Shown: positions 11,294-19,098, counted from the first letter of the stretch. The stretch: DNA of 33,424 nt from Patescibacteria group bacterium (GCA_038216025.1 JBBQQK010000003.1:1-33424); one strand, 5' to 3'. Numbers and translations: made by a program. Notes: generated from the sequence alone by a model not told the origin.

Positions 11294-11390
11294 TAGTCCA
11301 TATCAATGCCTTTTGCTGGAGAGTGTGCCTGATTTGCTTACGATAATAACACTTTGATAAACTATATATAAAGGAGTTCTTATTTTTGCT

Positions 11391-13379
11391 ATGAGGAGAG
11401 GGAAGCTTTTTAAAAAAATATTCATCGTCATCTTTACGGTATCCTATTTTTTATTTTATTCAACGCCATCTGTTGAGGCAGTCGTTCCGTACAATTTTCA
11501 ATTCAACCAAGCTGTTTTGTCTGAATCAAAAATTGCCGGGACACCTTTTATGCTGAACTTTGAATCATTTAACCCTAACAACGGTTTATATTTGAATTTT
11601 TCCGGGTGGGTATCCCTAAGCGCATCAAATTCTAAGGGCCAGGTGGTGATCACTCCTCCTATGGTTTATGTCTCAGGGGGAGAATTTAACGGCTCTGTTA
11701 GAATAGATGCGGCAGATCTTAATACCACTATTACTGCTTCTGCTGTGGGATACAGTGATTCCGTAAGTTCAGCTTTTTGTATTAACGCAGATCCAAGTCA
11801 AATCTTCTTGGGCATTGCCGGAGGAAACAATCAGGTTGGAAGAGTTTCTAATGTGCTGGAGAACTTAATAAAAGTTCGTCTTACCGATCGATACGCTAAT
11901 CCAATAGAAGCAGTCGGGGTCATGTTTAAAGTTGCTAGCCAACCGAATGGAGCAGCTGGTTCTCTCAGTGCTACCAACCCTAGTACAGACGCAAATGGAT
12001 ATGCTTTAACCAGCCTCACACTCGGCAATAAAGCTGGAACTTACCTAATCACGGCATCTCTCTTGGGGTCGCTGACTACTTTGGCCGCTCCGGTAAATAT
12101 TTACGAGACGGCTATTCCAATGCCTCTAAGTAATCTGTCTGTAAATCCAATTCTGTCTGTCGTGCCAAGGGGAGCGCAACAAGTTTTTCAGGCTAGCGGA
12201 TTTGATCGGTTCAATAATCCTGTGTCTTTGGGAAATGTGTCTTGGAGCGTTACTAATGGAGGAGGTACAATTGATAATAACGGTATCTTTACAGCTGGCA
12301 CAAAGGTAGGTAATTTTCAAAACACTATCAAAGCATCTGTAGGCGCAGTGGGGGCTGCTGCTTCGGTCAGCATTATAAGGGAAGATGACGAGTCGGATAC
12401 CCAGAAGACCGAGAATGAAGGCAGTCAAGGCGCAGGCGTTCCAGGTGATACTGGCGACCAGGGGGAATCCGGTTCCGGAGTCGCTAGCAGTGGATCTGGC
12501 AGCGGACAATCTGGTGTTACACAGAAAAAGCTTGAAGGCCAAGGCGTGCTAGATCGAGTTGCCTTGTCTCCCAATATTATTCAAAGTGAAATTAACACCA
12601 GAAATCCAATTATCGCAACTGCTTATGACAAATATAATTTTGCTATAAACGAAATTAACTTCAAGTGGTCGCTTGAGGGAGAGGTTGGAGAGCTTATTTC
12701 TGACACTAGCGCCAATGCTGAACTTGTTCTACGCAATCAACCCGGCAATGGAAAAATTACAGTCAGCGCTATTCAAAACGATATCTCGAAAACAGCTGAA
12801 CTGGTGGTTGCATCGAAACCAACACCTGGAGGCGTTTTTATTTTTGATGAGATAAGCGGACCCAAAAAGGCCGGAGAATCTTTCAAGATTAAAATCACCG
12901 CAAAGGACAATAGCGGCAATATATTAGCTGATTTTAAGGATCAGGTTGCCCTTAGGGATTCAACTAATACAATGATACCCACGGCAATAAATGAATTCAA
13001 AGACGGCGTATGGGAGGGGGATATCACAATCTCGGTAGGTAAAAAGAATGTGGTTATAGATGCTATTTCTCCAGGTCTAAATGGAGTATCTAATACGTTT
13101 GAGGTGACGGGGGAGCCTGCTCATATCGCCGGCGCAACGTCGGGCGCAGGAGCCTTGGGGTCAATCAAATTTTTGGGGGCTGGATTTGCCGCCGGTTTTG
13201 GCATATTGGGCTCAGCTCTCGGAATGGCATGGATGGCAGGCAGAGGATTGGAAGCAATCGGAAGAAATCCTATGGCCAAATCGAAAGTGATGGTTAACAT
13301 GTATTTAGGACTGATCCTCGGCCTTATCACCGGTGTTTTGTCTTTGGCTGCTGCCTTTATTATAGCTAGACCAGGATAG
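11391..13379 (+). CDS. secreted multi-Ig-like (invasin/Big-like) protein fused to a C-terminal ATP synthase subunit-c-like hairpin lacking the ion-binding carboxylate
   Basis: Signal peptide ending VEA, Ig-like repeats (DRYANPI, DRFNNPV, DKYNFAI) and a Gly/Ser linker. The last ~73 aa are [66 protein letters not shown]. The gene occupies the atpE position directly before atpF. Confidence 0.85.
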
Positions 13380-13479
13380 AAGATAGTCCGCCTATATCGC
13401 ATCATAGGAAAATCTAATATAATTACAATATAATCAATATTGAAATAGTGCTCGATATCCAAAACCATGGAGGGAATAG

Positions 13480-13995
13480 GTGCCTTTAGATTTACTAATC
13501 AACGTTTTTATTACCGGACTATGTTTGCTAGGCATGGGACTATATTTTAATCACCGAGAAAAAAAACTCCATTCAGTAGCAGAAAAGCGCTTGTACAGCT
13601 TTAAGGATCAATACCTTCACCACGTAGCCAGAAGAAAGGTTAAAGAAAAGGAAGAGATCGCTAAGTTAAAAGAACTAGCTAGAAAATTGGAAGAAAAACA
13701 TCTTCAGATGATTGTTAGCGAGAAAAAAGTGACAGTCCAAAACAAGGATTATCTGGAGATTGAGGTGGAAAAAGTGATGAAGCAAGCGCAAGAAAAAGCC
13801 CGCCAGATTGAAGAAGAAACTAAAGCCAGCTCTCAGATATTTTTGGAGGAGCAAAAAAAAGAAGTTCAGATGAAGATGGTTGATCTGGTTATGGGCGTGA
13901 CAGAAAAGGTTCTCAACAAAACACTGGCTTACGACGATCATAAAAAAATGATTGAGGAGGCGCTGGCTGATATGGAAGGAGAAGATGGAGAATGA
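13480..13995 (+). CDS. atpF: F-type ATPase subunit b-like
   Basis: A single N-terminal TM and a long charged coiled coil ending VDLVMGVTEKVLNKTLAYDDHKKMIEEAL, a b-subunit C-terminal pattern. GGAGG RBS and operon position agree. Confidence 0.8.
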   Translation: MPLDLLINVFITGLCLLGMGLYFNHREKKLHSVAEKRLYSFKDQYLHHVARRKVKEKEEIAKLKELARKLEEKHLQMIVSEKKVTVQNKDYLEIEVEKVMKQAQEKARQIEEETKASSQIFLEEQKKEVQMKMVDLVMGVTEKVLNKTLAYDDHKKMIEEALADMEGEDGE

Positions 13996-17390: not shown

Positions 17391-17404
17391 GCGAAGGATG
17401 ATTT

Positions 17405-18799
17405 ATGGATGAACAACAAAAAGTCGGGAAAATTATCGGGATCCACGGTGCGGTGGTTGATATTCGTTTTCCGGGAAAATTGCCTCAGTTGCACAACGCG
17501 ATGCATGTCCAGAACCGAGATCTTCTTTTGGTTCTGGAAGTGTATGAACATCTTCCCGATCATACTGTTCGAGCATTGGCTATGGGCGCCTCCACAGGGC
17601 TTAAAACCGGTTTAGAGGTTATTGATACGGGAGACGTTCTCCATGTGCCGGTCGGCCCTGAAATGCTGGGGCGAATTGTAAATATTTTCGGTGATCCGGT
17701 CGATAATTGCGGGCCAGTCAATACGAAAGAGCGGCAGCCGATTTTTAAACCGGCACCGGCCTACACCGAGGTAAATACTTCCTCTGAAATATTAGAAACA
17801 GGCATCAAAGCACTCGATTTTCTAACCCCTTTTATCAAGGGAGGAAAAGTTGGCTTTTTCGGCGGCGCTGGGACGGGAAAAACCCAATTGGTTACCGAGA
17901 TTATCCATAACACGACCATGAAACACGGCAACAATTCTGTCTTTTGCGGCGTGGGTGAGCGGACAAGGGAAGGAAATGAGTTATACCTAGCTTTGCGCGA
18001 TACAGGAGTGTTACAAAATGTGGCCATTGTTTTGGGGCAGATGAACGAGTCTCCGGCAATGAGATATCGAACTCCGTTGACAGGTATCACGATGGCCGAA
18101 TACCTGCGTGACTGGAAGAAAAATGATATTCTTTTATTTATCGACAACATCTTCCGTTTTATTCAAGCAGGTATGGAGGTGTCGATCGTGTTAGGGCGTA
18201 TTCCGTCTGAGACCGGTTATCAGTCAACTTTGGCCTCGGAAATCGGTGAAGTTCAAGAACGGATTGTCTCAACTGAAACCGGCTCGATCACTTCCATTCA
18301 GGCCATATATGTTCCGGCTGATGACTTTTCTGACCCGGCCATTCAAGCCATTTTTTCTCATCTGGATTCGGTTGTTGTGCTTGACCGTAAAATTACTCAG
18401 CAAAAGATATATCCGGCCGTTGACCCTCTTCAATCCTCTTCGACAGTTGATTCCAGTATTCTAGGAGAAAAGCATTATAAGGCTCGAAAAGATGCCCTAA
18501 AACTCCTTGAGCGCTACCGATCACTCCAAAATATTATCGCTATTTTGGGCGAAGATGAGCTCTCGGAGACAGAAAAAGGAACTGTTCAGCGGTCAAAAAA
18601 AGTTTTGAAATTTTTCTCTCAACCTTTCTATACGGCAGAGAAGTTTACTAATGTAAAAGGAGAATATATTCCGGTCGGTGATACGGTTGACGGCATAGTC
18701 CGCATATTGAGCGGGGAATTTGACGAGATGACCGACGAACCGTTTTATATGGTAGGCAATATTGAAAGCGCATTGAACAAATGGAAGAGCAATCATTAG
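17405..18799 (+). CDS. atpD: F1 ATPase beta subunit
   Basis: GGAGTGKT (Walker A), [12 protein letters not shown] (catalytic Glu), [24 protein letters not shown] and DELSETE. Confidence 0.97.
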
Positions 18800-19098
18800 A
18801 AAATAATAGTGATAGTGCAAAAATAGCAGCAGAATTGCCCACTGAAATTCCGGCTGATTTTGACTTGATAGTTGTTAATATGGATAAGTTGTTATTCGAA
18901 GGAAAAGTCACTTCATTTTTTGCCCCTGTCAAAGGGGGCAGCCTGGCTGTGCTTCCCGGCCATACCCCTCTTTTTACCAAATTGGAAAAAGGAAAAGTGG
19001 TCGTCAACACAGTCGGAGGCAGCCCGACTGAATTTGAGATAGAGAACGGGATTGCCAAAATAACACAGACAAAAGCAGTCGTCTTAGTCGGCTTTTAA
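18781..19098 (+). CDS. atpC: F1 ATPase epsilon subunit, N-terminal beta-sandwich only
   Basis: [22 protein letters not shown]...GKVVV. The protein stops right after the beta-sandwich, with no C-terminal helices. Confidence 0.88.

Follow-up and report, generated by a model that had tools for sequence, protein, structure and literature searches.

What could an ATP synthase operon do without a gene for subunit a? It is the coupling of ATP to an ion gradient that defines F-type ATPases, and the question is raised by a 33,424-nucleotide stretch of DNA from a Patescibacteria group bacterium (GCA_038216025.1 JBBQQK010000003.1:1-33424), referred to here at its full length as the window. Within it, seven ATPase-like genes (11391-19098), all of them intact, follow one another in the order c-like, b, delta, alpha, gamma, beta and epsilon. 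A preliminary description of this DNA had read them as a candidate ion-uncoupled, ATP-driven motor. Here we report on the gene content, relatives and predicted structures of this cluster, and with moderate confidence, as judged from sequence, we favour an accessory, ion-uncoupled, ATP-hydrolysing rotary F-type ATPase that would serve a Pam-type pilus and surface apparatus mechanically.

The accessory operon and its ion path

The seven genes lie in a tightly packed block of thirteen on the forward strand (7309-21749; intergenic gaps of -44 to 241 nt). The first, flanked by gaps of 97 and 100 bp, encodes a 662-residue fusion (11391-13379, +) that joins a Pfam Big_1 match (E 1.1e-12) to an ATP-synt_C match at residues 595-658 (32.9 bits; cut-off 24), and that we call Ig-c after its predicted immunoglobulin (Ig)-like domains. 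It is followed by a b-like peripheral-stalk subunit (13480-13995, +), a long helix with one N-terminal transmembrane (TM) segment at residues 5-23, which has no Pfam match and was assigned by its position in the operon and its fitting length, with a weak NCBIfam match to F0F1 subunit B (E 1.5e-5, 24.6 bits; cut-off 127). The delta/OSCP subunit (13952-14536, +; Pfam OSCP, E 7.4e-16, 59.2 bits; cut-off 22.3) has an uncertain start codon and, as listed, overlaps b by 44 nt. The alpha subunit (14526-16502, +; Pfam ATP-synt_ab, E 3.5e-73) retains GDRKTGKS and the Arg-finger motif SVSRIG and carries a Lys/Glu-rich N-terminal extension of about 130 residues as well as a C-terminal tail. Gamma (16506-17390, +; Pfam ATP-synt, E 3.8e-43) precedes beta (17405-18799, +; Pfam ATP-synt_ab, E 3.6e-70), in which Walker A, GERTREG, Walker B (LLFIDN) and DELSETE could all be aligned, so that the catalytic motifs are intact. 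The last of the seven, epsilon (18781-19098, +; Pfam ATP-synt_DE_N at residues 27-103, E 1.6e-15), is a 105-residue beta-sandwich without the C-terminal helical domain, while the canonical epsilon of the same genome has 138 residues; in canonical enzymes this C-terminal domain inhibits hydrolysis. The preliminary description had given the canonical order E-F-H-A-G-D-C, gaps of about 100 bp around the c-fusion, and retention of Walker A, the catalytic Glu and Walker B in beta and of SVSRIG in alpha; open reading frames (ORFs), Pfam matches and alignments bear it out on each of these, with b placed by position and its weak NCBIfam match.

An ordinary split operon, with a stand-alone atpB and a canonical atpE elsewhere and no further F1 genes, had been named in the preliminary description as the refuting case. 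We searched the whole genome (1.06 Mb, 95% complete) for PF00119 and obtained a single match, on another contig (C10), inside a complete canonical operon that runs from an atpI-like gene through a (261 aa), c (75 aa; its helix 2 carries the Glu), b, delta, alpha, gamma and beta to epsilon. Because subunit a sits in a complete canonical operon, where it and the canonical c are accompanied by a full second F1, a split operon is excluded. The genome holds four strong alpha/beta matches, two per cluster. Identity between accessory and canonical subunits is 51% for beta, 48% for alpha, 26% for gamma, 23% for epsilon and 40% over 50 residues for c, and the b and delta pairs are undetectable by BLAST; the c loop is nearly identical in Ig-c and canonical c. 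The window genes are a second set for an F-type ATPase, accessory to the canonical one, and the two paralogous sets are old. The canonical operon is itself interrupted between atpA and atpG (G000 contig C10, L012:6200-7350) by about 1.1 kb of small ORFs, one of which, of 128 residues, resembles a GIY-YIG nuclease domain by eye.

The preliminary description had held that both halves of the ion path were lost, that no subunit a was encoded in the window and that a dockerin-like gene occupied the atpB slot, and all three points stood up to closer analysis. The slot immediately 5' of Ig-c holds a gene for a surface protein with a C-terminal dockerin (9962-11293, +; Pfam Dockerin_1, 29.7 bits; cut-off 22.9). 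A TM scan of the block 7309-21749 revealed no protein with more than two hydrophobic segments, hence no polytopic membrane protein, and tblastn with the canonical subunit a gave no match in any of 21 related loci. In alignment with the canonical c of the same genome, a Leu of Ig-c falls at the ion-binding Glu. A database search for the Ig-c family returned 29 matches, including 22 full-length fusion clusters, and in all 22 of these members helices 1 and 2 contain no Asp or Glu at all. The cytoplasmic c loop, which contacts gamma and epsilon, and the Gly-rich packing motif of helix 1 are nearly invariant in the same family. Since the cluster has no subunit a and the c helices no carboxylate, it is well supported that the predicted membrane sector can neither bind nor conduct ions, that is, that the ATPase is ion-uncoupled. 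In comparison with canonical F1Fo (atpIBEFHAGDC), the cluster has the same order from c to epsilon, Pfam matches above cut-off for c, delta, alpha, gamma, beta and epsilon, and the catalytic residues; it differs in the missing a and c carboxylate, in a 560-residue secreted Ig array on c, in the shortened epsilon and extended alpha, and in coexisting with a canonical operon. It is therefore an F-type ATPase by its F1 and stalks that fails two defining features of Fo, subunit a and the carboxylate.

A model of Ig-c (AlphaFold2 on the 22-row alignment; pLDDT 80) predicts a signal peptide, three beta-sandwich domains (D1-D3, residues ~34-329), two more (D4-D5, 387-573) and a helical hairpin (590-659). 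D3 and D4 would be separated by a 48-residue Gly/Ser-rich linker (333-380) that is predicted to be disordered. As the N-terminus of a c subunit faces outward, an extracellular position of the five Ig-like domains is in keeping with this topology. Relative to the window protein, mean identity is 62% in the hairpin, 60% in D4-D5, 44% in D1-D3 and 23% in the linker, so that the hairpin and the membrane-proximal domains are the best-conserved parts of the fusion. A Foldseek search of the PDB with the model returned generic multi-Ig chains alone (S-layer proteins, titin, complement), at TM-scores of 0.1-0.24. A complex prediction for one of the pilins encoded downstream (pilin A, residues 30-403) and D1-D2 of Ig-c (31-245) scored 0.00 against a mark of 0.32; run without controls, it is uninformative either way.

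Conservation, phylogeny and a wider class

The full-length fusion was found in 5 of 40 relatives, at 48-54% identity. Orthologous loci in CPR2, Berkelbacteria and bins labelled "Saccharibacteria" (all members of the candidate phyla radiation, or CPR) share the order coh1, coh2, chaperone-like gene, dockerin gene, Ig-c, b, delta, alpha, gamma, beta, epsilon and one or more pilin genes, and this order is kept in at least ten loci. Across them, orthologues of the accessory beta (beta2) are 79-83% identical, those of alpha 66-73% (from about residue 100-120 onward) and those of gamma 60-73%, compared with 36-60% for the surface proteins, which points to strong constraint on the F1 core; the fusion is 45-52% identical and the b-like subunit 43-50%. 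All five carriers examined possess both a beta2-type gene and a canonical-type beta (52-53%). Exactly one PF00119 match, adjoining a canonical c, was present in four of them, and in the fifth, which is 94% complete, no subunit a was detected. Among 400 further Patescibacteria genomes, sampled evenly, five encode the accessory gamma type, four at 47-68% identity and one at 31%. In a large protein collection, none of the 120 best matches to beta2 is less than 66% identical to it. This clearly exceeds its 51% identity to the canonical beta of the same genome, so that the beta2 clade is larger than the 22 fusion clusters. All 27 of 27 accessory betas retain Walker A, and 25 of 27 retain GERxxE.

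For the phylogeny suggested in the preliminary description, we built an alpha-rooted IQ-TREE of beta subunits by careful search, using 42 rows. Relative to a quick tree, E. coli AtpD and AtpA were added and 21 rows were left out, given as 15 of the 20 P-series betas and L031, L050, L052, L079, L082, L083, L087 and L088; E. coli is the sole canonical reference from outside the CPR, and the rows do not include N-ATPase or mycoplasma betas. The canonical CPR betas and E. coli AtpD form one clade (91/88), outside of which the betas that accompany the c-Ig fusion group on their own (99/100), in agreement with a separate clade as had been envisaged. More distant accessory betas, described below, constitute a third clade (83/96). 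The trees neither establish nor reject a common origin for the accessory betas as a whole, with values of 64/82 in the careful tree and an SH-aLRT of 88 in the quick tree. Scores from phmmer against solved structures follow the same trend: with the best solved canonical beta, the genome's canonical beta scored 716 bits, beta2 546 and the distant type 362; with the G1-ATPase beta of Mycoplasma mobile (9io5_A), the corresponding scores were 407, 342 and 255. A third beta-like gene, 49% identical to beta2 and with the motif GGAGVGKS, occurs on a 5-kb contig of one carrier genome (G026 contig C37; L098/L091) and branches alone in the tree.

Searching with a pattern for the c loop revealed a wider class of loci in Daviesbacteria, Woesebacteria, Levyibacteria, Pacebacteria, Wirthbacteria, Saccharibacteria-type and other small metagenome-assembled genomes (MAGs), namely L047, L049, L051-L054, L057, L061, L065, L067, L068, L070-L072, L077 and L079, with the c-like gene near position 10000 in most. 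Their operon logic is like that of the Ig-c type: a signal peptide, an ectodomain and a c-like hairpin in one protein, then b-like, delta-like, alpha, gamma, beta and epsilon genes, and no a nearby. The hairpins have an AIGRNPLAK-type loop and, in 17 of 17 cases, no Asp or Glu in helix 2. The ectodomain is different, being either about 190 residues long or, in Wirthbacteria (L065), an NHL beta-propeller, and the betas are about 40% identical to beta2. Among five genomes of this type that were checked, a canonical subunit a lies elsewhere in four, and one or two extra alpha/beta pairs are present; some genomes carry two operons of this kind in addition to the canonical one. A model of the 190-residue form (L072:9905-10711) resembles phage capsid decoration or cement proteins (Foldseek E 7e-5, TMt 0.4-0.6), and the hairpin of the model can be superposed on c subunits of solved structure; the ectodomain may be the "tail fibre-like protein" of a preprint on Pam pili discussed below.

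Two side observations may be added. Giant ORFs of 1500-2900 residues directly adjoin several of the distant-type operons (L061:2288-9184, -; L070:1259-8836, -; L077:2-8701, -; L052:15617-20191, +). In addition, CPR-type canonical betas, 67-73% identical to that of the window genome, and Pam pilins are encoded in MAGs (about 1-1.6 Mb; L048, L050, L051, L053, L054, L068, L072 and L079) whose records bear the titles Gammaproteobacteria, Nevskiaceae or Sulfotelmatobacter; these labels look wrong.

Pilus genes and comparison with known systems

Pam-type pilus genes surround the ATPase genes, a feature that the preliminary description had missed. The two genes that follow epsilon (pilin A, 19340-20551, +; pilin B, 20676-21749, +) match NCBIfam CPR_Pam_pilin_C below its cut-off (E 1.7e-3 and 2.3e-5, respectively) and were assigned by profile comparison, pilin B being a member of profile alignment A2. 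As a reference we used three Pam pilins of another genome (G438) that score 121-176 bits on NF058581 (cut-off 55); hhalign of the window pilin family against them gave a probability of 98.7% (E 2.3e-16, 318 columns). By this comparison both are homologues of Pam pilins, and they represent a divergent branch, since they score below the NCBIfam cut-off. Local hidden Markov models detected pilin genes 3' of epsilon in the window and in all nine Ig-c-type loci that reach that far. In G438, a distant-type accessory ATPase is followed at 2-5 kb by the above-cut-off pilins, and the canonical operon is on another contig. Two more weak Pam-pilin-like genes (E ~1e-6, below cut-off) were found elsewhere in the window genome (G000 contig C42:5710-7340, -).

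Upstream of Ig-c, the block begins with coh1 (7309-7866, +), a secreted protein with a cohesin domain (Pfam Cohesin, 34.9 bits; cut-off 24.1) and an N-terminal hydrophobic segment, whose syntenic orthologues are 55-64% identical. The TM scan describes coh2 (7863-8912, +) as a single-pass membrane protein with a signal peptide, an ectodomain, a TM segment at 252-270 and a Lys/Glu-rich cytoplasmic tail; it has no family match in Pfam or NCBIfam and about 40% identity to its syntenic orthologues. The next gene (9002-9937, +; orthologues 54-60% identical) encodes a candidate membrane-anchored pilus chaperone with a WxLIP_PGBD match (E 2.8e-5, below cut-off), a signal peptide and a C-terminal TM segment at 280-298. 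Orthologues of the dockerin gene that follows are 36-43% identical and stand immediately 5' of Ig-c in seven loci. Cohesin and dockerin domains thus sit on separate secreted proteins, coh1 and the 9962-11293 product, which by their domains would make a cohesin-dockerin pair.

According to the text of the Pam preprint (bioRxiv 10.64898/2026.03.03.709456), these CPR pili are built by donor-strand exchange, PamC and PamD are PapD/FimC-like chaperones with C-terminal TM helices, assembly is argued to need no trans-envelope machine, and no retraction machinery was found. In the same text, pam operons consistently have ATP synthase genes next to them, which is read as a coupling to ATP production or metabolism. 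The window cluster resembles the Pam system in the pilin homologues after epsilon and may do so in the upstream candidate chaperone (9002-9937), whose layout fits PamC and PamD as described there. It differs in the cohesin and dockerin proteins, which have no mention in the preprint's text. That text treats the ATPase genes as ATP-production genes and is silent on a second set, a missing a, the loss of the carboxylate and a c-ectodomain fusion; the comparison covers the text, and the figures and supplements may show more.

The closest functional analogues, by analogy of parts and setting, would be the F1-like X0 ATPases of mycoplasmas, Types 2 (the gliding G1-ATPase of M. mobile) and 3 (associated with MIB-MIP). 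In the parts of the source covered (PMC12994834), these too are F1-derived accessory ATPases that stand beside an essential canonical enzyme and are encoded with surface machinery; their clusters have no b or delta and encode instead a small cytoplasmic protein and one with 12 TM helices. MMCAP2_0577 and MMOB1650 are described there as proteins in which a signal peptide and a large ectodomain precede two TM helices at the C-terminus, and this is also the layout of Ig-c. The parallel drawn in the preliminary description, with a different composition, was hence apt and proves closer than it claimed, as a two-TM ectodomain protein is found on both sides. Membership of the mycoplasma group was nevertheless rejected: the CPR cluster has b and delta/OSCP and no polytopic, 12-TM protein, and beta2 scores higher against canonical betas (546 bits) than against the beta of the G1-ATPase (342). 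From the solved betas it is further removed than is the genome's own canonical beta.

Another known second F-type operon is that of the N-ATPase, an alternate enzyme spread by lateral transfer; it has both a and an ion-binding c but no delta, and its genes are ordered beta-epsilon-Q-R-a-c-b-alpha-gamma. The window cluster shares with it the presence of a canonical operon in the same genome. By this definition an N-ATPase was rejected, as the order here is c-b-delta-alpha-gamma-beta-epsilon, delta is present and a is absent. Among the articles and preprints searched, in a search that left supplements and figures aside, we found no account of an a-less accessory F-type ATPase or of a c-ectodomain fusion in CPR. 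One preprint on ATPase evolution (10.64898/2026.10.01.756066) examined CPR beta neighbourhoods without describing such a system in the text covered, and a 2023 paper in Cell on Patescibacteria genetics mentions, in the portion seen, a single F-type ATP synthase. What is already in print is the occurrence of "ATP synthase" genes beside pam operons; what we did not find stated is that there is a second set without a and without the carboxylate, and with ectodomain-c fusions.

Proposed mechanism, alternatives and neighbouring genes

In the mechanism that we propose, alpha3beta3 would form the F1 head, gamma with an epsilon devoid of its inhibitory domain the central stalk, and b with delta the peripheral stalk, while the membrane sector would be a ring of c-type hairpins without carboxylate that carries five Ig-like domains per protomer on the outer face of the membrane. 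F1 would hydrolyse ATP and turn gamma and epsilon, which would grip the conserved loop of the c-ring, and the ring with its crown of Ig domains would turn or twist against the b-delta stator. No ion gradient would then be needed for chemical energy to pass through the membrane in the form of mechanical work. The load would probably be the encoded Pam-type pilus and surface apparatus (the chaperone-like, cohesin and dockerin proteins and the two pilins), and the work might consist in rotation, winding or retraction of the pilus, or in its assembly. Put briefly, we infer a mechanical coupling by which the accessory ATPase probably burns ATP for work at the cell surface.

Should this prove true, ATP energy would be sent across a membrane as torque by a rotary kit that has no ion path and bears protein domains on the outside of its rotor ring. 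CPR Pam pili, which have no known motor or retraction machine, would gain a candidate engine, and the ATPases of mycoplasma gliding and antibody cleavage a plausible ancestor-like state. A likely misreading of "ATP synthase" genes in metabolic reconstructions of CPR would also be corrected. At least four alpha/beta matches occur in 28 of 200 sampled genomes, a count that mixes accessory F-type with A/V-type enzymes. Of 201 sampled Patescibacteria genomes (at least 90% complete), 58 gave no alpha/beta-family match at E 1e-40 and thus no rotary ATPase with this query.

Several points weigh against a rotary machine that works on a pilus. The formation of a ring by a c hairpin that bears a 560-residue ectodomain is assumed. 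Without subunit a, nothing known would hold the b stalk beside the ring, and the stator anchor that torque requires was not identified; coh2 as stator or pilus anchor is speculation. Owing to the disordered linker at 333-380, the distal D1-D3 domains could not transmit torque rigidly, and the geometry by which a ring of many protomers would be coupled to a single-chain donor-strand pilus is unclear. Two orthologous clusters contain genes that are each split into two frames, delta2 and alpha2 in G038 (L031:6473-8725) and Ig-c and beta2 in L040 (10001-11914 and 15708-17071), which may reflect decay, a frameshift or an assembly error. Finally, the link to a pilus is not universal: among the distant-type loci, pilin genes were detected within the fetched stretch in L067 and L072 alone.

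The main rival keeps ATP as the driving force and dispenses with a continuous rotor. Here the ring of c hairpins would mainly be a membrane platform that displays Ig domains, and F1 a switch or an energiser of pilus assembly or export, acting by limited torsion, by a conformational signal through the membrane or in a role like that of the flagellar ATPase FliH-FliI-FliJ, which is related to F1. The missing stator anchor and subunit a, the flexible linker inside the ectodomain and the location of the cluster among pilus assembly genes all agree with it, as does the mycoplasma Type 3 F1-like X0 ATPase, which is needed for the surface MIB-MIP system by a mode of action described as unknown in the portion of the source covered (PMC12994834). 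Yet the whole rotary kit, namely gamma, epsilon, b, delta and the rotor-binding c loop, is kept and conserved, a peripheral stalk would be superfluous for a pure switch, and the preprint's text argues that Pam assembly needs no trans-envelope machine (bioRxiv 10.64898/2026.03.03.709456). We consider such a non-rotary energiser or switch possible, though on the doubtful side.

Two further explanations are both unlikely. Ion transport or ATP synthesis might have been kept, either because the canonical a is borrowed or because Ig-c is mixed into canonical c-rings, where its Ig domains would decorate or localise an ordinary ATP synthase. A subunit a does exist in the genome, the loop is nearly identical in both types of c, and the idea fits the coupling to metabolism put forward in the text of the Pam preprint (bioRxiv 10.64898/2026.03.03.709456). 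An Ig-c ring, however, would have no ion-carrying carboxylate in any of the 22 members, subunit a is encoded in none of the 21 accessory loci, and the cluster has a complete F1 and stalks of its own, which have diverged strongly from the canonical set (26% identity in gamma, 23% in epsilon, b and delta beyond detection by BLAST) and speak for a separate complex; we hold the chance of retained ion transport to be small. Smaller still, to the point of being very improbable, is that of a decaying, functionless duplicate of the atp operon, as might be suspected from the loss of a and of the carboxylate and from the split genes in two relatives. Against decay stand the seven intact genes of the window with their catalytic motifs, the identity of the betas (79-83%) and alphas (66-73%) across families and classes compared with 36-60% for neighbouring surface proteins, and a gene order retained in at least ten loci.

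The mechanical, rotary reading can be extended into a more specific and frankly tentative proposal. The Ig-c ring might be both the rotor and the membrane base of the Pam-type pilus, in an F1-driven, ion-independent motor that turns or winches an extracellular filament built by donor-strand exchange; flagellum and archaellum would thereby be joined by a third type of motor-driven filament in prokaryotes. Taken with the wider CPR class, the Ig-c machine might further be an evolutionary intermediate between F1Fo ATP synthase and the F1-like X0 motors of mycoplasmas, the two-TM ectodomain protein of which would then be a degenerate c subunit. We think it rather improbable that this proposal holds in full.

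A scan of 6800-22000 for promoters and terminators gave counts that do not exceed those of shuffled sequences (41 vs 35.3 and 17 vs 13.4, respectively). Among sequencing runs, one DNA dataset was listed, a sediment metagenome that may be the source, and no RNA dataset. On the 5' side, the thirteen-gene block is preceded by genes for a P-type cation ATPase (643-3207), DnaG (3921-5648) and RpoD (5737-6855). On the 3' side, the reverse strand at 23527-25482 encodes a Lys/Glu-rich protein of 651 residues that has a single TM helix and matches no family in Pfam, and the extreme AT skew (-0.47) at 24-25 kb is due to this gene. It is followed by a second WxLIP_PGBD-like protein (25585-26520, +; Pfam E 2.6e-5, below cut-off), possibly a further chaperone of the PamC/PamD type, whose membership of the cluster is uncertain. 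The window ends with a glycogen/starch block (26501-33094) that comprises phosphorylase-like, alpha-amylase/CBM48, GT4/GT5 glycogen-synthase-like and GH57 genes.

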